64,000 nucleotides of DNA from Escherichia coli (GTDB taxonomy: Bacteria > Pseudomonadota > Gammaproteobacteria > Enterobacterales > Enterobacteriaceae), in the NCBI RefSeq assembly GCF_050920415.1, contig NZ_CP169309.1; one strand, 5' to 3'. The notes below the pieces were generated by a model. That model saw only the letters and a list, made by a program, of their open reading frames with translations. It did not search any database and was not told the DNA's origin. The stretch's first letter is position 1, and the number at the start of each line of letters is the position of its first letter. This document shows, piece by piece, positions 1 through 59,072 of this stretch. Made by a program: the position numbers and the translations under genes.

Positions 1-729
1 TTTTCGCTGGTGGCTGTTAACCTCGATCAAAAGCAACCGGGCTTCCCGGAACACGTTCTGCCCGAGTATCTTGAAAAGCTGGGCATTGAGTACAAGATTG
101 TGGAAGAGAACACTTACGGTATCGTGAAAGAGAAGATTCCGGAGGGCAAAACCACTTGCTCACTGTGTTCTCGTCTTCGTCGCGGAATTCTTTACCGTAC
201 CGCAACGGAACTGGGAGCGACGAAGATCGCGCTGGGTCACCATCGTGACGATATCCTGCAAACGTTGTTCTTAAATATGTTCTACGGCGGCAAGATGAAA
301 GGTATGCCTCCGAAACTGATGAGCGATGATGGCAAACATATTGTGATTCGTCCGCTGGCCTACTGCCGCGAGAAAGATATTCAGCGATTTGCCGATGCAA
401 AAGCGTTCCCGATTATTCCGTGCAACCTGTGCGGTTCACAGCCTAACCTGCAACGTCAGGTGATTGCTGACATGTTGCGTGACTGGGATAAACGTTATCC
501 GGGGCGTATCGAGACGATGTTCAGCGCGATGCAGAATGTGGTGCCGTCGCATCTGTGCGATACCAACCTGTTCGATTTCAAAGGCATTACCCACGGTTCT
601 GAAGTGGTTAACGGGGGTGATCTGGCGTTTGATCGCGAAGAGATCCCTCTACAACCGGCGGGTTGGCAGCCTGAAGAAGATGAAAATCAGTTGGATGAGT
701 TACGACTGAATGTGGTTGAAGTGAAATAA
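1..729 (+). CDS. ttcA: tRNA 2-thiocytidine biosynthesis protein TtcA, 3' portion (5' end outside window)
   Basis: ORF runs in from window start; translation matches TtcA C-terminal region (two CxxC pairs); stop at 727-729. Confidence 0.88.
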
Positions 730-857
730 CCCGGATAGCGCCCGATGCGCAAGCTTATCGGGCTACTCTTATGGAGGCCGGATAAGACGCGGCCAGCGTC
801 GCATCCGGCAATCCCGAAGAAGATGTTTACTCTTGCACCCTGCGATTCAACATTTCA

Positions 858-2231
858 TTATTTTAATAACCGCACCCGGCACGTTTTTCCTTTAATCTTC
901 CCGCCCTGTAACTGTTTCCATGCTTTATGAGCAACAGCCTGACGCACCGCGACATAGACATGCGCCGGATGCACGGCGATTTTGCCAATATCTGCGCCAT
1001 CAAGCCCGATATCTCCTGTCAGCGCACCTAATACATCACCCGGGCGCATTTTGGCTTTTTTCCCGCCATCGATACACAACGTTGCCATTTCTGCTTCCAG
1101 CGGCACAATGGAACTATTAACTGGCGGCGTTTGCCAGTTAAGTTTTATCTGCAACATGTCAGAAATGATATTGGCCCGCTGTGCTTCTTCCGGGGCACAG
1201 AAACTGATCGCCAGACCGCTATTTCCTGCACGCGCTGTACGACCAATGCGATGTACATGAACTTCAGGGTCCCACGCCAGTTCAAAGTTCACTACCAGCT
1301 CAAGCGATTTAATATCAAGACCACGCGCAGCAACATCCGTCGCGACCAGCACACGAGCGCTACCGTTAGCAAAACGTACCAGGGTCTGATCGCGGTCACG
1401 TTGCTCCAGATCGCCATGTAACGACAATGCACTTTGCCCTATGTCATTCAGCGCGTCGCAGACAGCCTGACAATCTTTTTTGGTATTGCAAAACACCACG
1501 CAAGAGGATGGCTGATGCAAACTTAATAACCGTTGCAACAGCGGAATTTTGCCTTTGCTGGATGTCTCATAAAATTGTTGTTCAATGGGAGGCAGAGCAT
1601 CTGTTGAGTCAATTTCAATCGCCAATGGATCGCGTTGAACTCGTCCGCTGATTGCGGTGATGGCTTCCGGCCAGGTTGCCGAAAACAGAAGCGTCTGTCG
1701 AGATGCTGGCGCAAAACGGATAACATCATCAATGGCATCGCTAAATCCCATATCCAGCATGCGATCGGCTTCATCCATCACCAGCATATTCAACGCATCC
1801 AGTGATACCGTGCCTTTTTGCAGATGGTCCAGCAAACGCCCCGGGGTTGCCACGATAATATGCGGCGCATGTTGCAACGAATCACGCTGCATACCGAACG
1901 GTTGACCACCGCACAAAGTCAAAATTTTGGTATTTGGCAGAAAACGCGCCAGCCGACGCAATTCACCTGCCACCTGATCCGCCAGTTCACGCGTAGGGCA
2001 CAGCACTAAAGCCTGGGTCTGAAATAGCGACGCATCAATTTTCTGTAGCAGCCCGAGGCCAAAAGCCGCCGTTTTGCCGCTGCCGGTTTTCGCCTGCACG
2101 CGAACATCTTTTCCGGCAAGGATCGCCGGAAGCGCGGCGGCCTGCACCGGCGTCATAGTTAAATAACCCAACTCATTAAGGTTCGTGAGTTGGGCGGGAG
2201 GCAAAACATTCAGGGTAGAAAAAGCGGTCAC
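858..2231 (-). CDS. dbpA: ATP-dependent RNA helicase DbpA (DEAD-box)
   Basis: 457 aa; GSGKT Walker A, DEAD box, SAT, HRIGRTAR motifs; apparent GTG start. Confidence 0.92.
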   Translation of the reverse strand: MTAFSTLNVLPPAQLTNLNELGYLTMTPVQAAALPAILAGKDVRVQAKTGSGKTAAFGLGLLQKIDASLFQTQALVLCPTRELADQVAGELRRLARFLPNTKILTLCGGQPFGMQRDSLQHAPHIIVATPGRLLDHLQKGTVSLDALNMLVMDEADRMLDMGFSDAIDDVIRFAPASRQTLLFSATWPEAITAISGRVQRDPLAIEIDSTDALPPIEQQFYETSSKGKIPLLQRLLSLHQPSSCVVFCNTKKDCQAVCDALNDIGQSALSLHGDLEQRDRDQTLVRFANGSARVLVATDVAARGLDIKSLELVVNFELAWDPEVHVHRIGRTARAGNSGLAISFCAPEEAQRANIISDMLQIKLNWQTPPVNSSIVPLEAEMATLCIDGGKKAKMRPGDVLGALTGDIGLDGADIGKIAVHPAHVYVAVRQAVAHKAWKQLQGGKIKGKTCRVRLLK

Positions 2232-2261
2232 AATCTGTTCTCGTGGTCATCGACGCAAAAA

Positions 2262-2435
2262 TTAGCAAGCGCGTATCCTCGCAGATCTACGCTCACGATG
2301 CGACAATTTAATCGGTTCTTCATCGGGTGGTGGGTCAGGCATGGGTTGCGGGCGAGGGATTGGATCGGGCACTGGAACAGGATCGCCAGGAATCGGTTCA
2401 GGGACAGGAATTTGCAAATAAATGAGTGTCGTCAT
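2262..2435 (-). CDS. hypothetical proline-rich small protein (57 aa)
   Basis: ATG at 2435 preceded by GGAGGG RBS; Pro/Asp-rich repeat-like peptide; too short for ORF track. Confidence 0.3.
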   Translation of the reverse strand: MTTLIYLQIPVPEPIPGDPVPVPDPIPRPQPMPDPPPDEEPIKLSHRERRSARIRAC

Positions 2436-2709
2436 ATTTCCCTCCGGTCATTGGGTGGACTCTTAAAGGGTAGACGCTGATATATAACAGGCAAAAAAAA
2501 GCCGACTCATCAAAGTCGGCGTCGTACGAATCAATTGTGCTATGCAGTAATTCAAAAAAGGAAGTAAGACAATATGGAGCGCAACGCCCATCGCTTGACG
2601 TTGCATTCACCTGCAAGAGAGATATTGCCCTGAATGGGTAGAGAGTTTATTGACTTCGCTCAAACTTTGCGGCGTTTTTGTATACAGATAGTAGGGAAAA
2701 TTGCTGTTG

Positions 2710-3714
<1,005 letters not shown>

Positions 3715-3947
3715 TTATTTTGTAGTCTAGCCTTCTGGCCCTGTTACGCAACATCTCATCACCCCATTACCCTGAAATGATTAATAAAATTCTGTCTAAA
3801 TTGAATACAAAAAGCAAAATGCTTTTCCATATACAAACCGTGTGAAGTGTTAAATAGCGTCTATCATTATCAGAATTATCTGATCATATGACGTGGCTTT
3901 TTTGCGATCGGATAGCAACAAAAATTGATAAAAATAACGGGATCTCA

Positions 3948-5180
3948 ATGATTACGCACAACTTCAATACCCTGGACTTACTCACCAGTCCTGTCTGGAT
4001 CGTTTCGCCCTTTGAGGAACAGTTAATTTATGCCAACAGCGCGGCGCGACTGTTGATGCAAGACCTCACGTTTAGTCAGCTACGAACCGGTCCCTATTCC
4101 GTCTCCTCACAAAAAGAACTACCGAAATACCTCTCCGATCTGCAAAACCAACACGATATTATCGAAATCCTCACTGTTCAACGTAAAGAAGAGGAAACAG
4201 CATTAAGCTGTCGGCTTGTTTTGCGAGAGCTGACAGAAGCAGAACCGGTGATTATTTTCGAAGGTATCGAAGCGCCGGCAACGCTGGGTTTAAAAGCCAG
4301 TCGTTCGGCAAATTATCAGCGCAAAAAACAAGGTTTTTATGCGCGCTTTTTTCTGACTAACTCTGCACCAATGTTGTTGATTGACCCCTCACGAGATGGC
4401 CAAATCGTCGATGCTAACCTCGCCGCGCTCAATTTCTATGGTTATAACCATGAAACGATGTGCCAGAAACATACCTGGGAAATTAATATGCTCGGGCGTC
4501 GCGTCATGCCTATCATGCATGAAATCTCGCATTTACCCGGTGGTCATAAGCCTTTGAATTTTGTTCATAAACTGGCGGATGGTTCGACTCGTCATGTGCA
4601 GACCTATGCTGGGCCGATTGAAATTTATGGCGACAAGCTCATGTTATGTATTGTGCATGATATTACTGAGCAAAAACGGCTGGAGGAGCAGCTGGAACAT
4701 GCTGCCCACCATGACGCGATGACCGGATTACTGAATCGGCGACAGTTTTATCACATTACCGAGCCAGGCCAAATGCAGCACCTCGCCATCGCTCAGGATT
4801 ACAGCTTATTGCTCATCGACACCGATCGTTTTAAACACATTAACGATCTCTATGGGCATTCTAAAGGTGATGAGGTGTTATGCGCCCTCGCCCGCACTCT
4901 CGAAAGTTGCGCTCGCAAAGGCGATTTGGTGTTTCGTTGGGGAGGCGAAGAGTTTGTCTTATTGCTACCAAGAACCCCACTGGATACCGCGCTTTCGCTG
5001 GCTGAAACTATCCGCGTAAGCGTGACAAAAGTGAGTATTTCGGGCTTACCACGCTTTACCGTCAGCATTGGTGTGGCGCATCACGAAGGAAATGAAAGCA
5101 TCGATGAACTGTTTAAACGCGTTGATGATGCTTTGTATCGGGCGAAAAATGATGGACGCAACCGCGTGCTGGCGGCATAA
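3948..5180 (+). CDS. dgcM: diguanylate cyclase DgcM (PAS-GGDEF)
   Basis: GGDEF domain with RWGGEEF motif; start chosen at MITHNF (410 aa) rather than upstream ATG of the 430-aa track ORF. Confidence 0.82.
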   Translation: MITHNFNTLDLLTSPVWIVSPFEEQLIYANSAARLLMQDLTFSQLRTGPYSVSSQKELPKYLSDLQNQHDIIEILTVQRKEEETALSCRLVLRELTEAEPVIIFEGIEAPATLGLKASRSANYQRKKQGFYARFFLTNSAPMLLIDPSRDGQIVDANLAALNFYGYNHETMCQKHTWEINMLGRRVMPIMHEISHLPGGHKPLNFVHKLADGSTRHVQTYAGPIEIYGDKLMLCIVHDITEQKRLEEQLEHAAHHDAMTGLLNRRQFYHITEPGQMQHLAIAQDYSLLLIDTDRFKHINDLYGHSKGDEVLCALARTLESCARKGDLVFRWGGEEFVLLLPRTPLDTALSLAETIRVSVTKVSISGLPRFTVSIGVAHHEGNESIDELFKRVDDALYRAKNDGRNRVLAA

Positions 5181-5200
5181 GCCGCGGATGCGTCTCGAGA

Positions 5201-5764
5201 TCAACGACTGCGCTTAGCGTGGCGCTCCCAGTTTTCTTGCTTTGCCTGCGCCGTTTTACGTAGTGCGACGTAACACGCCCCGCTGCCGCCATGATGCGGT
5301 AGCGCGGTACAATATGCCTGGACATCATCAAATTCGGTCAACCAGCGCGCCACATAGCTGCGGACAATATTGGCATGCGATTTATCTTCCCGCCCTTTAC
5401 CATGAATAATCAGCACATTACGCAAACCATCCGCCAGGGCTTGTTGAATGAAACTGAACACCATTTTGCGGCACTCTTCCACCGGCTGGCGCAAAAGATT
5501 CAGGCTCGCCTGTTGCGGATATTTACCACTGCGCAGCTTATCCAGCACCCCATGTTGCAACCCTTCCCGCCGAAACTCCAGCGGCTGGCTTAGCGGAATG
5601 ATGTCGAGAAATCCGGTGGTGAGGAAATTATCAAGTTGCAGCGTGTCGATACGCTGCGGCGCACGTTGGTTACGCGTTGGATGCCAGTGGACATCTGTAG
5701 CACGTTTCAGCGGCTGGACATCTTCCATGGCGTCAAGAAACAGCGATTTGTCGTCAAGGTTCAT
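5201..5764 (-). CDS. smrA: Smr-domain endonuclease SmrA (YdaL)
   Basis: 187 aa; C-terminal Smr domain (LIIHGKG motif). Confidence 0.8.
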   Translation of the reverse strand: MNLDDKSLFLDAMEDVQPLKRATDVHWHPTRNQRAPQRIDTLQLDNFLTTGFLDIIPLSQPLEFRREGLQHGVLDKLRSGKYPQQASLNLLRQPVEECRKMVFSFIQQALADGLRNVLIIHGKGREDKSHANIVRSYVARWLTEFDDVQAYCTALPHHGGSGACYVALRKTAQAKQENWERHAKRSR

Positions 5765-6093
5765 GTTACATCCTCCCGCAATTAAGAGCGCGATATGATA
5801 ACCAGACCGGGTCGGTCCAACAACGTATTACCCAAAATTCCAGTAATAAGTTCCAAATATTGCCGATATTTTAAGCAAAATGCTTATGCATGATTATTCA
5901 TTCACGATATTAATAATGTAACTTATATTTTCGTGAAATCTGTCACTGAAGAAAATTGGCAACTAAAGGTTAAAACCGTTATAACACAGTCACCGGCGCA
6001 GAGGAGACCATGCCGGATTTAAGACGCGGATGCACTGCTGTGTGTACTGTAGAGTCTGGCGGATGTCGACAGACTCTATTTTTTTATGCAGTT

Positions 6094-42283: not shown

Positions 42284-42367
42284 TCAATATTTATTGATGA
42301 TATATACGCAAGCTACAAAACTTGCACAGTATGTTAATACTTCCAACCAGTCGAATAGCTCTTTCAT
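42284..42367 (-). CDS. mini-ORF array member 10 (27 aa hydrophobic peptide)
   Basis: MKELFDWLEVLTYCASFVACVYIINKY; AGGGTAAACA RBS. Confidence 0.4.
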   Translation of the reverse strand: MKELFDWLEVLTYCASFVACVYIINKY

Positions 42368-42377
42368 TGTTTACCCT

Positions 42378-42449
42378 TTACATAATCGAAAGCGCCCAGG
42401 TAATAAGGACGATAGCCAAAACCATGCAGATAAAATCTGACTCTCTCAT
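42378..42449 (-). CDS. mini-ORF array member 9 (23 aa hydrophobic peptide)
   Basis: MRESDFICMVLAIVLITWALSIM; AAGGTGGA RBS. Confidence 0.4.
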   Translation of the reverse strand: MRESDFICMVLAIVLITWALSIM

Positions 42450-42463
42450 ATTGTCCACCTTGT

Positions 42464-42532
42464 TTACGCGAAGAAAACAATAACAGCTAACAGCGTGCAT
42501 ATAGCCATAATTAAGAAATCACTATCAGACAT
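42464..42532 (-). CDS. mini-ORF array member 8 (22 aa hydrophobic peptide)
   Basis: MSDSDFLIMAICTLLAVIVFFA; GGGAG RBS; start overlaps member 7 stop. Confidence 0.35.
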   Translation of the reverse strand: MSDSDFLIMAICTLLAVIVFFA

Positions 42533-42599
42533 TGATAATCACTCCCACGATAATTAACGCTGCTATACATACGAACAATACAGCTTCGATAACATCCAT
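42525..42599 (-). CDS. mini-ORF array member 7 (24 aa hydrophobic peptide)
   Basis: MDVIEAVLFVCIAALIIVGVIINV; AGGTGA RBS. Confidence 0.4.
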   Translation of the reverse strand: MDVIEAVLFVCIAALIIVGVIINV

Positions 42600-42607
42600 T
42601 CGCTCAC

Positions 42608-42676
42608 CTATTGAGTTAGCGCGGTCATGGTAAGAACAATCGCAACGATCAGGAAAAAGAAATCAAGCCATTTCAT
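42608..42676 (-). CDS. mini-ORF array member 6 (22 aa hydrophobic peptide)
   Basis: MKWLDFFFLIVAIVLTMTALTQ; ATGA overlap with member 5 stop. Confidence 0.4.
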   Translation of the reverse strand: MKWLDFFFLIVAIVLTMTALTQ

Positions 42677-42753
42677 TTTTTAAACTCCCGATAAACATCT
42701 ACGGCAATCACTGTAATAACAGCCACCAGCAATAGCATTTCATATGCGTTCAT
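42673..42753 (-). CDS. mini-ORF array member 5 (26 aa hydrophobic peptide)
   Basis: MNAYEMLLLVAVITVIAVDVYREFKK; AGGTGA RBS. Confidence 0.4.
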   Translation of the reverse strand: MNAYEMLLLVAVITVIAVDVYREFKK

Positions 42754-42761
42754 GCTTTCAC

Positions 42762-42836
42762 CTATACAACGTTATTCCACCAGAAATAGATAATGACTGC
42801 GACCAACGACCACCAGATGAGATCGTAAATGTTCAT
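42762..42836 (-). CDS. mini-ORF array member 4 (24 aa hydrophobic peptide)
   Basis: MNIYDLIWWSLVAVIIYFWWNNVV; weak RBS, likely coupled. Confidence 0.35.
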   Translation of the reverse strand: MNIYDLIWWSLVAVIIYFWWNNVV

Positions 42837-42848
42837 GATTAAATACCG

Positions 42849-42923
42849 TCAGCTCTCAATGAATATCATGATCGCCAGCCATACAGCGACGCAGGCAGAA
42901 AGAACAATAAGCGGATCAATCAT
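42849..42923 (-). CDS. mini-ORF array member 3 (24 aa hydrophobic peptide)
   Basis: MIDPLIVLSACVAVWLAIMIFIES; GGGTGG RBS. Confidence 0.4.
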   Translation of the reverse strand: MIDPLIVLSACVAVWLAIMIFIES

Positions 42924-42935
42924 ATTGCCACCCAT

Positions 42936-57847: not shown

Positions 57848-58028
57848 TTAACACCTCGACGTATTGCTCAAGATGCCATTTACCAACTTCATCCATGTTT
57901 TCGTCGTATATAATGACCTCTCCGCCTTGCCTGAATCTGAAAGCAGTAGCTGTAAATTCACGGCCCCACCACGCCTTTAAGCGCTCCCCGCCTTTCAGGT
58001 GTTTAACCTTTACTTCTTTTATAGCCAT
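57837..58028 (-). CDS. hypothetical protein (63 aa)
   Basis: ORF. Confidence 0.3.
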   Translation of the reverse strand: MAIKEVKVKHLKGGERLKAWWGREFTATAFRFRQGGEVIIYDENMDEVGKWHLEQYVEVLNEN

Positions 58029-58291
58029 ACGCCAAACATCCCATTCAGTCCGGCGAACAATTTCCGCCAGTGGTTTTCAGCATAAGCCCGGAACGGCTTA
58101 ACGCGAACATTGCGGGCCTTCAGTTCAATCTTGTCGAAGAAACGCGGCTCTATAATTGTTCCGTCCAGATATTTAACCAGGATCGGGCGCTCAAGATCGT
58201 TATAAGTCTTGTTCAGCACGACCAGGCCAGGGTCGCTACGATATTCTGGCAAAATAACAAGATCGCCCTCTTTTGCATTCCAAGTAACCAT
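58019..58291 (-). CDS. hypothetical protein (90 aa)
   Basis: ATG at 58291 coupled to upstream mini-ORF stop. Confidence 0.3.
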   Translation of the reverse strand: MVTWNAKEGDLVILPEYRSDPGLVVLNKTYNDLERPILVKYLDGTIIEPRFFDKIELKARNVRVKPFRAYAENHWRKLFAGLNGMFGVWL

Positions 58292-58410
58292 CACATCACC
58301 CCCTTACCAATAAAAGCCAATACCGCAGCAAGTGCTCCACAAAATACAACCGTAAACAGGAAACAAATAACGCAAAACGCGACATTCACAATGTCCTTAC
58401 CGACTTTCAT
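58291..58410 (-). CDS. small hydrophobic peptide (39 aa)
   Basis: MKVGKDIVNVAFCVICFLFTVVFCGALAAVLAFIGKGVM; GAGG RBS. Confidence 0.4.
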   Translation of the reverse strand: MKVGKDIVNVAFCVICFLFTVVFCGALAAVLAFIGKGVM

Positions 58411-58418
58411 GATTAACC

Positions 58419-58532
58419 TCACATATTAGTAATCAGTTTTATGATCGCTACCGTGATATAAAGAGAAGCAGCAAGATAAGCAACAGCTATTGCAACTCCA
58501 GCGGATAACGCTGCTATTTTGATTATGTTCAT
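58419..58532 (-). CDS. small hydrophobic peptide (37 aa)
   Basis: MNIIKIAALSAGVAIAVAYLAASLYITVAIIKLITNM; GGAGG RBS; ATGA-coupled. Confidence 0.4.
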   Translation of the reverse strand: MNIIKIAALSAGVAIAVAYLAASLYITVAIIKLITNM

Positions 58533-58780
58533 TTTTCAGCCTCCGCAATAAATCTATCCAACCATTTATTATTCGCCAGGCGTTCGGCATCTTCGCCAAA
58601 TGATTTACGATCGCTTAATTCCTGTCGAGTAGGGAAAGGCCATTTATCAACCCAGCCCGCAGACGTTTCGAATTCATAGTTGCCGCCGCCGAAATCAACA
58701 AATACATCACTATCATCAAGGCTTTCAGCAGTTCTCTGAAAACCTCTACCGTTATTTTCGCTTAATGTTGTAGCTGTCAT
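58529..58780 (-). CDS. hypothetical protein (83 aa)
   Basis: start placed at MTATTLSE within longer track ORF. Confidence 0.3.
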   Translation of the reverse strand: MTATTLSENNGRGFQRTAESLDDSDVFVDFGGGNYEFETSAGWVDKWPFPTRQELSDRKSFGEDAERLANNKWLDRFIAEAEK

Positions 58781-58793
58781 GATTAACACCTCA

Positions 58794-59072
58794 TTAATCG
58801 TTAATAACCTGGCCCATACGCCCGCGATATTTGCGCATACGTGGATCGACATATTCAGGCCAATGCATATCCGGTTTTCTTTGCAGTGGGTAAAAACTTG
58901 CCTGCCAGTTGTCGAACCATATTTGCTTTGCGTACAGGTCACTAAATCTTTTTGCCATCCGATCCGCTGCCGTGCCGCATAAAAAAAGCCCGCGATCGAT
59001 TTGATCACGGGCTTCTTTTAATACTTGCTCTTTTGTTCGTGGTTGCGGTGGCGGTTTTAGATAATCACTCAT
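58794..59072 (-). CDS. hypothetical protein (92 aa)
   Basis: start placed at MSDYLKPPP. Confidence 0.3.
   Translation of the reverse strand: MSDYLKPPPQPRTKEQVLKEARDQIDRGLFLCGTAADRMAKRFSDLYAKQIWFDNWQASFYPLQRKPDMHWPEYVDPRMRKYRGRMGQVIND

Follow-up and report, generated by a model that had tools for sequence, protein, structure and literature searches.

The window analysed here, a stretch of 64,000 nucleotides of Escherichia coli DNA, contains two very small open reading frames, ORF A and ORF B, which lie next to each other in a prophage spanning approximately 15.7 to 63.4 kb (Table 1). The preliminary description of this DNA had listed two small ORFs of 39 and 37 codons with GAGG and GGAGG ribosome-binding sites, and its coordinates, codon counts and binding sites are all right on the minus strand. 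From 40 to 64 kb, the window is 87-90% identical to the Escherichia phages mEp010, MagusPhagus, mEp554, mEp044, mEp013, mEp515 and mEp021, and on this nucleotide identity the prophage is a member of the E. coli mEp021/mEp010 ("mEpimmI") group. The mEpimmI phages are recently described Nus-dependent, non-lambdoid gut coliphages with an N-like antitermination system, and they are reportedly common in the human gut (PMC11893012). They infect E. coli K-12.

Table 1. Position of ORF A, ORF B and neighbouring features in the window.
Feature	Position	Strand	Remarks
E. coli chromosome flank, dbpA-ttcA region	1-6000		
Repressor	61736..61089	-	First gene in operon order
N-like antiterminator (Gp17)	60589..60299	-	After the repressor
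40-aa ORF with weak Kil match	60268..60146	-	Directly downstream of the N-like gene, before erf
Strong hairpin + U7, terminator-like	58981..59019	-	Inside abc2, ~450 nt upstream of ORF A, same operon
83-aa gene (mEp021 gp22-like; phrog_28542; weak DUF2737 similarity)	58529..58780	-	Stop overlaps ORF A start
Shine-Dalgarno GGAGG of ORF A	58544..58540	-	7 nt before ATG, within 3' end of 83-aa gene
ORF A	58532..58419	-	37 codons + TGA, peptide MNIIKIAALSAGVAIAVAYLAASLYITVAIIKLITNM
GC-rich hairpin CAGCG-TTATC-CGCTG	58499..58513	.	Strand unassigned; ORF A codons 7-12 (Ala-rich, GCN repeats)
Shine-Dalgarno GAGG of ORF B	58420..58417	-	6 nt before ATG, overlaps ORF A stop (TGAGG)
ORF B	58410..58291	-	39 codons + TGA, peptide MKVGKDIVNVAFCVICFLFTVVFCGALAAVLAFIGKGVM
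90-aa gene (mEp021 gp23-like; phrog_28396)	58019..58291	-	ATG overlaps ORF B stop by 1 nt

Nearly all genes of the prophage are on the minus strand. Downstream of the 40-aa ORF they follow in the order erf, ssb, abc2, the 83-aa gp22-like gene, ORF A, ORF B and the 90-aa gp23-like gene, and beyond these the prophage has further small genes, genes for methyltransferases and replication, Q, and then the lysis, terminase and structural genes. In the mEpimmI group a single direction is shared by the repressor, the N-like gene, Q and the genes for recombination, replication, lysis and structure, and nutR1 is placed upstream of the N-like gene (PMC11893012). The term "early-left region", used before for this neighbourhood, is therefore an analogy with lambda and P22 that draws on the recombination genes; the operon here is not a leftward one of the lambda type and continues into the replication and late genes. 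The downstream 90-aa gp23-like gene bears the PGAP name 'toxin-antitoxin system toxin subunit'; no family, HMM or PDB match was found to back this name, and the AlphaFold2 model of the product has a pLDDT of 42.

The two ORFs are tightly packed between their neighbours. The ATG of ORF A and the stop of the upstream gene overlap as ATGA, as had been claimed for both flanks of the pair. At the other flank the claim needs amending, since the ORF B stop and the downstream ATG share a single base in the window (TGATG), ATGA being present there in other alleles, and ORF A and ORF B themselves do not overlap, with a gap of 8 nt in the window.

Conservation of the two reading frames

We compared 55 loci with 72-98% nucleotide identity, comprising the window, seven phages, nine E. 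coli prophages and 38 IMG/VR contigs. One 38-codon open frame by itself is not significant, and it is the conservation of both frames over 55 loci at this level of nucleotide identity that takes ORF A and ORF B beyond chance. ORF B is intact in all 55 loci and ORF A in 54, the exception (L019) being due to a 5' frameshift; the preliminary description had staked the pair on conservation of the frames in related prophages, and this is what was found. The 55 loci encode 22 distinct ORF A and 30 distinct ORF B peptides, of 35-39 and 37-40 aa respectively, all indels are multiples of three, and the fused A+B peptides are 62-92% identical across distinct allele pairs. Gene order around the pair (gp22-like, A, B, gp23-like) is the same in every locus.

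Start signals are kept to a similar extent. Both the GCGGAGG ahead of ORF A and the ATGA stop/start overlap at its beginning occur in 54/54 scorable loci. A GAGG-type Shine-Dalgarno precedes ORF B in essentially all copies, in most alleles as TGAGG and in the A3 allele as GGGGTGAG, and the spacer from the ORF A stop to the ORF B start measures 2-9 nt in 53 of 54 loci. An alternative GTG start, which would extend ORF B to 43 aa, is out of frame in the alleles that have a 7-nt spacer, and the 39-codon ATG start is thus the conserved call.

Selection acts in the proposed frames. Relative to the window, Nei-Gojobori dN/dS values are about 0.08-0.19 for ORF A, with dS saturated, and 0.11-0.47 for ORF B. 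Pooled over unique sequences, pN/pS is 0.31 for ORF A (28 sequences) and 0.41 for ORF B (33 sequences); over all estimates it ranges from 0.29 to 0.31 and from 0.39 to 0.41, the lowest of all frames. The control frames (the other two sense and two of the antisense frames) give 0.9-1.4 and contain 4-76 stops, and the mirror antisense frame gives 0.41-0.48, with stops present. Stop codons number 2-76 in the other five frames, and only the proposed ORF A and ORF B frames are free of them.

A further observation comes from E. coli STEC308, which carries a KilA-N gene precisely at the boundary of the pair, after the ORF A stop and before the ORF B start, with neither ORF damaged. Mosaic junctions of this type, at gene boundaries, are to be expected where phage genes are real, and the insertion shows that adjacency of A and B is dispensable. 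The alleles of the two genes are nevertheless strictly paired (A2 with B2 in 12/12 cases, A3 with B1c in 6/6), and it is the flanking genes that are reshuffled against them, the upstream one in its two forms and the downstream one in its N-terminal variants. This pairing of sequence types suggests that ORF A and ORF B are inherited together and perhaps also function together; close physical linkage would be enough to yield it as well.

The segment has been annotated in a different way in the original mEp021 GenBank record, which has no genes here and places a terminator, 'TERM_2', inside ORF A, at the GC-rich hairpin. In the window, this hairpin has a predicted energy of only -8.6 kcal/mol (z -0.8) and is followed by GAGUUGCAAU, its T-run being on the opposite strand; a minus-strand scan returned no terminator, and there is no gene-strand U-tract. 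A UUUGUCU stretch follows the hairpin in mEp021-type alleles only, those annotated with TERM_2. In a set of 13 diverse alleles, 81% of the cells for the six pairs are paired, and two compensatory changes fall at wobble positions, which exceeds what shuffled controls give (0/500). Sliding the hairpin partner by +/-3 still leaves 61-65% pairing, an effect of the GCN periodicity, the energy of the consensus fold is only -4.5 kcal/mol, and predicted folds vary between alleles. It is possible that a selected hairpin is overlaid on the ORF A coding sequence; such a hairpin cannot replace the coding explanation.

Taken at face value, the mEp021 record would make the region a non-coding spacer carrying a terminator or another RNA element, and the two ORFs chance frames. 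The output of PGAP, which in most E. coli genomes annotates nothing in these 240 bp (although ORF B is called in UMNK88), and the retention of the small hairpin in most alignment cells would agree with such a reading. We nevertheless regard it as highly improbable, as it does not account for frames that stay open in 54 and 55 of 55 loci with indels in threes and with purifying selection in these frames only, nor for a Shine-Dalgarno and an ATGA overlap kept without exception in the scorable loci, whereas the hairpin is weak in the window, lacks a U-tract on the gene strand and folds differently from allele to allele, and no Rfam family was found in the ORF A/B interval (the only two matches, both sub-threshold, are upstream in abc2). 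Virtually no credence is left for the idea that the real gene is a plus-strand ORF of 119 aa (58070..58429), the longest on that strand to overlap the region in the window. It is antisense to both ORF B and the highly conserved 90-aa gene, the antisense frames gain stops in relatives (2-50 over 13 sequences for the ORF B segment), and a low pN/pS in one antisense frame is what mirroring of the sense frame should produce; not being conserved and having stops in homologues, this ORF is effectively refuted. Because of the open frames, the selection acting in precisely these frames and the conserved start signals, we hold that ORF A and ORF B are very probably genuine, translated genes.

Peptide properties and the search for relatives

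The predicted products, of ~4 kDa each, share one conspicuous feature, a stretch of 26 residues without K, R, D, E, H, N or Q that is bracketed by lysines (residues 6-31 of ORF A and 10-35 of ORF B). The highest Kyte-Doolittle mean over 19 residues is 2.36 for ORF A and 2.78 for ORF B. AlphaFold2, applied to an artificial A-B fusion with a 24-sequence alignment, predicts long helices at residues 3-38 and 42-73 (pLDDT 71), one for each peptide, in agreement with their earlier portrayal as single-helix hydrophobic peptides. Both fall in the descriptive class of small single-pass membrane proteins, whose members have no more than 50 aa and a single hydrophobic helix of 19 residues or more with charged flanks, and they are very probably membrane peptides. 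In all ORF A and ORF B alleles positive charge is higher at the N-terminal than at the C-terminal end of the helix, which by the positive-inside rule predicts an N-in/C-out topology for both.

Invariant residues include K5, I6, A7, L9, A11, Y19, S23, L33 and I34 in ORF A and F12, C13, F17, F19, G25, A28 and A29 in ORF B, with conservation being stronger in the C-terminal half of ORF A and in the N-terminal half of ORF B. If both peptides are N-in, these most conserved halves would lie at different depths of the membrane, which does not favour a simple parallel A-B dimer. A search for a binding face through 100-degree helical periodicity of conservation gave no significant signal (P = 0.19 and 0.44). 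The two peptides are not paralogues of each other, hhalign assigning a probability of 0.9% to that relationship. We also compared them, by hydrophobicity and charge polarity, with the larger array of small genes at 42.3-43.1 kb that they had been said to echo; the likeness extends to hydrophobicity, whereas most of the array peptides are acidic at the N-terminus and basic at the C-terminus, so that their polarity is reversed.

Database searches with ORF A and ORF B returned no match beyond noise in Pfam, PHROGs, NCBIfam, PADLOC or PDB. The best of the noise-level matches were TMEM70, phrog_36365, PDC-S55 and PsbI. A profile built from the fused alignment and run against 1.84 billion cluster representatives recovered seven proteins, all belonging to the ORF A and ORF B families, and no distant relatives. 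A tblastn search for the same arrangement in other phage groups, using the upstream DUF2737-like protein, gave only the same seven phages. Judging from these searches, the two families are confined to the mEpimmI phage group, so that their function cannot be inferred by comparison.

The exact ORF A peptide of the window is already deposited as a hypothetical protein (GDQ62516.1) and found on 55 contigs. For other ORF A alleles the number is 290-451 contigs per allele, and the sources are in all cases E. coli or Caudoviricetes MAGs. ORF B is represented by 29 homologous clusters of 37-40 aa, and all of those with a source name come from E. coli or a Caudoviricetes MAG; the exact ORF B peptide of the window, with Asn9, is absent from the protein collection. 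The same two genes, in the same position and with the same coupling signals, are mEp010_29/mEp010_30 (WWQ70192.1/WWQ70193.1) and MagusPhagus CDS0113/CDS0112. These phage orthologues and the deposited E. coli ones, GDQ62516.1 and, for ORF B, UMNK88 WP_000868625.1, show only allelic differences from the window, and no function is recorded for any of them. In phages annotated with PHANOTATE/Pharokka, mEp010 for example, both ORFs are called 'hypothetical protein'. ORF A and ORF B are thus new, group-restricted families of a well-known kind that have already been deposited as hypothetical proteins. Phage genomes and the intergenic regions of enterobacteria are rich in small hydrophobic ORFs (PMC11188072, citing Fremin et al. 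2022).

The suggestion that the two peptides are Kil-like has no basis in homology. Kil (PF06301) is an FtsZ/ZipA-dependent division inhibitor and, to our knowledge, not a transmembrane peptide. The Lambda_Kil profile (PF06301 / phrog_2055) matches neither ORF A nor ORF B at E <= 1, and its weak match belongs to the 40-aa ORF (E 5e-5, 23.1 bits, under the gathering score of 27.6), which occupies the classical Kil position after the N-like gene; we therefore reject the two ORFs as Kil homologues. A "Kil-like protein" is counted among the mEpimmI core genes (PMC11893012). What ORF A and ORF B do have in common with Kil is that they are small early-operon products of a temperate coliphage, so that a host-inhibitor role is possible by position. 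For the type I toxin families Hok, Ldr, TisB and Ibs, no relevant Pfam or NCBIfam match to either ORF was found at E <= 1, and nothing significant relating them to exclusion or defence came from PHROGs, Pfam or PADLOC. By these profile comparisons, neither ORF is homologous to Kil, to type I toxins or to an exclusion protein described so far.

Expression signals and possible function

The pair does not form an independent transcription unit. Coupling through ATGA/TGATG is present in 54/54 loci, and our scan revealed no gene-strand promoter above chance ahead of ORF A and ORF B. Upstream in the same operon, the terminator-like hairpin within abc2 is very strong (-30.7 kcal/mol, z -5.5). The records of mEp010 and mEp554 list it as an ARNold terminator (T4), and an exact copy occurs in mEp554 and in 16 of the 38 IMG/VR loci. 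On the plus strand, a promoter-like site (58418-58445) followed by a hairpin and T-run (58499-58523) could mark the two ends of a ~70-nt RNA running antisense to ORF A. Promoter-like matches number 4 against 3.9 expected, and terminator-like matches 5 against 2.5 expected. Coding (IIKLITNM, KIA) and the Shine-Dalgarno dictate the bases of these plus-strand signals, and A2 alleles do not have the antisense terminator geometry.

The explanation that we favour, with moderate confidence, is that ORF A and ORF B encode accessory inner-membrane micro-proteins of early lytic development that would act on a membrane component of the host. Translation would proceed by coupling, entering ORF A through the ATGA overlap, passing to ORF B through a Shine-Dalgarno that contains the ORF A stop, and leaving it with the ORF B stop placed on the next ATG. 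The products would insert in the inner membrane with the N-terminus in and the C-terminus out, each crossing it once as a helix of ~26 residues, with lysines at the peptide ends. Because the pair lies behind a terminator-like hairpin in the early operon and has no promoter of its own, it is probably made only in lytic development, as delayed-early genes when the N-like antiterminator is active, and would be silent in the lysogen. In lytic growth the peptides, like other bacterial and prophage micro-proteins of <50 aa, may bind or perturb a component of the host inner membrane and so serve as accessory factors of host takeover or host modulation. They probably act as a pair, since A and B alleles are inherited together. 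Small membrane proteins generally work through larger membrane partners (PMC12648545). AcrZ, MgtS and MgrB, single-pass inner-membrane proteins of <50 aa, share with ORF A and ORF B their length, the single hydrophobic helix and short charged ends (PMC12648545); they have no sequence relation to ORF A and ORF B, which, unlike them, are phage-encoded and belong to an early lytic operon.

Among specific roles, two are the main options. ORF A and ORF B might be early toxins that damage the membrane and kill the host or stop its growth, functional analogues of Kil or of Hok/TisB, perhaps with an antisense RNA opposite ORF A. Their small size, hydrophobicity and lysine-flanked single helix fit the physical profile of type I toxins (PMC2887945, PMC8309996), and Hok/Gef, Ldr, TisB, Ibs and ShoB are likewise small, hydrophobic, lysine-flanked helical peptides (PMC2887945). 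The plus-strand sites that could frame a ~70 nt antisense RNA and the two covarying wobble pairs of the ORF A hairpin would also be in keeping with such a locus. We find this unlikely, however, since no toxin family of Pfam or NCBIfam and no antitoxin RNA of Rfam was matched, the promoter- and terminator-like sites occur at chance frequency in bases constrained by coding and the Shine-Dalgarno, and A2 alleles are missing the antisense terminator geometry. Unlike type I toxin loci, moreover, which stand alone with a promoter and leader, the pair sits inside an operon and is coupled in translation, and the phage already has a Kil-like ORF.

Superinfection exclusion, which the preliminary description had proposed along with a Kil-like role, would have the peptides block the entry of phage DNA at the inner membrane, either in the style of T4 Imm and HK97 gp15 or via proteins of the ManYZ/PtsG type. 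T4 Imm and HK97 gp15 block DNA entry of other phages. A precedent among small prophage proteins is DicB, which reportedly blocks inner-membrane proteins used in phage entry (ManYZ). An exclusion factor would normally have to be made in the lysogen, where exclusion is usually selected. ORF A and ORF B are predicted single-pass inner-membrane peptides of a temperate siphovirus, and T4 Imm, HK97 gp15, P22 SieA and DicB are similarly phage-encoded and located in, or acting at, the inner membrane; these proteins are, however, larger, multi-pass or expressed from the prophage, whereas ORF A and ORF B have no promoter of their own. The mEpimmI phages do carry other exclusion functions, such as Lpp (PMC11893012). 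The proposal finds no support in similarity to exclusion or defence families of PHROGs, Pfam or PADLOC, and with no above-chance promoter and an antitermination-dependent operon lying behind the hairpin and U7 of abc2, expression in the lysogen is unlikely, which argues against a classical, lysogen-expressed exclusion role, although exclusion during lytic growth would be possible. We consider this explanation quite unlikely. The lytic expression that we infer is compatible with host takeover, with host modulation or with exclusion during the lytic cycle.

Beyond the favoured explanation of accessory micro-proteins acting on the host membrane, one may imagine that A and B form a co-adapted module, peculiar to the mEpimmI phages, that binds a machine of the host inner membrane, and that the ORF A hairpin is a selected, dual-coding element. 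We think this unlikely. If true, the early target of the module might be, for example, a DNA-entry or transport complex or FtsH, the module would exclude competitors or tune the decision between lysis and lysogeny, and the hairpin would be a sense or antisense terminator in some alleles.

As they stand, our results are unsurprising and do not overturn current understanding. Their value is mainly one of annotation, in that RefSeq/PGAP and the original mEp021 record miss two genes, or have a terminator in their place, although all the scorable relatives that we examined conserve them. Phage micro-proteins are poorly charted, and two families specific to this group are now added to them; the pair offers an easy experimental entry to the role of early phage membrane micro-proteins.

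Hairpins within ORF A and abc2

The record of the related Escherichia phage mEp021 places a terminator, TERM_2, within ORF A, the upstream member of the pair of small hydrophobic peptide genes. Comparison across the alleles of this gene revealed two compensatory changes in the hairpin, both at wobble positions. A U-tract follows this hairpin on the gene strand in mEp021-type alleles only, and the A1 and A3 allele types carry a T-run after it on the opposite strand. Another hairpin of the same early operon, very strong and followed by U7, sits within the coding sequence of the anti-RecBCD gene abc2. It is annotated as an ARNold terminator in the mEp010 and mEp554 records, an identical copy occurs in mEp554 and in 16 of the 38 IMG/VR loci, and a sub-threshold Rfam match to Thr_leader overlaps it.

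Features in and around the early operon and the tiny-ORF array
Feature	Location	Strand	Remarks
Array of ten successive tiny ORFs	window 42284-43123	minus	22-40 aa
90-aa gene	window 58019-58291	minus	highly conserved; downstream of ORF B
Hairpin, TERM_2 in mEp021 record	window 58499-58513; mEp021 (L001) 3681-3697		inside ORF A
Very strong hairpin + U7	window 58981-59019	minus	-30.7 kcal/mol, z -5.5
40-aa ORF	window 60146-60268	minus	immediately downstream of N-like antiterminator gene
KilA-N domain gene, 237 aa	E. coli STEC308 (L010, NZ_CP091020.1) 1217-1930		inserted exactly at the ORF A/ORF B boundary

Variation at the ORF A/ORF B boundary and the gene downstream

The KilA-N domain gene of E. 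coli STEC308 takes over the start position of ORF B behind the stop codon of ORF A. ORF B is restored 11 nt past the stop codon of the inserted gene. Rare variants of ORF A itself were also seen: one related locus (L019) has a 5' frameshift, another (L021) has a tryptophan codon in place of the stop, which lengthens the peptide by two residues, and in a 72-aa E. coli database entry (P0030) the stop is read through, out of frame, into the ORF B region.

The gene downstream of ORF B is labelled 'toxin-antitoxin system toxin subunit' by PGAP, and mEp021 gp23 'putative toxin-antitoxin system subunit'. Searches of Pfam, NCBIfam, PADLOC and PDB gave no support for this name, and the AlphaFold2 model of the product was unusable (pLDDT 42).

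The tiny-ORF array and a candidate Kil gene

Every ORF of the array, which is flanked by a 176-aa gene and by the gene for the small terminase subunit, codes for a single hydrophobic helix, and most of the peptides combine an acidic N-terminus with a basic C-terminus (for example MDESIIAGLIGISIFLVGFVIAVLITVMSKY and MIASILTFIGGMAAGFILCLFLVVMSMQD), a charge polarity reversed relative to the ORF A and ORF B peptides. The array is a mosaic, only partially conserved in MagusPhagus and mEp010, and a PHROGs scan of five of its ten ORFs returned no match.

The 40-aa ORF next to the antiterminator gene shows a weak match to Lambda_Kil: its PF06301 hit has an E of 5e-5 and, at 23.1 bits, does not reach the gathering score (27.6), and its phrog_2055 hit has an E of 4e-4. 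This ORF is likely the Kil homologue of this phage group.
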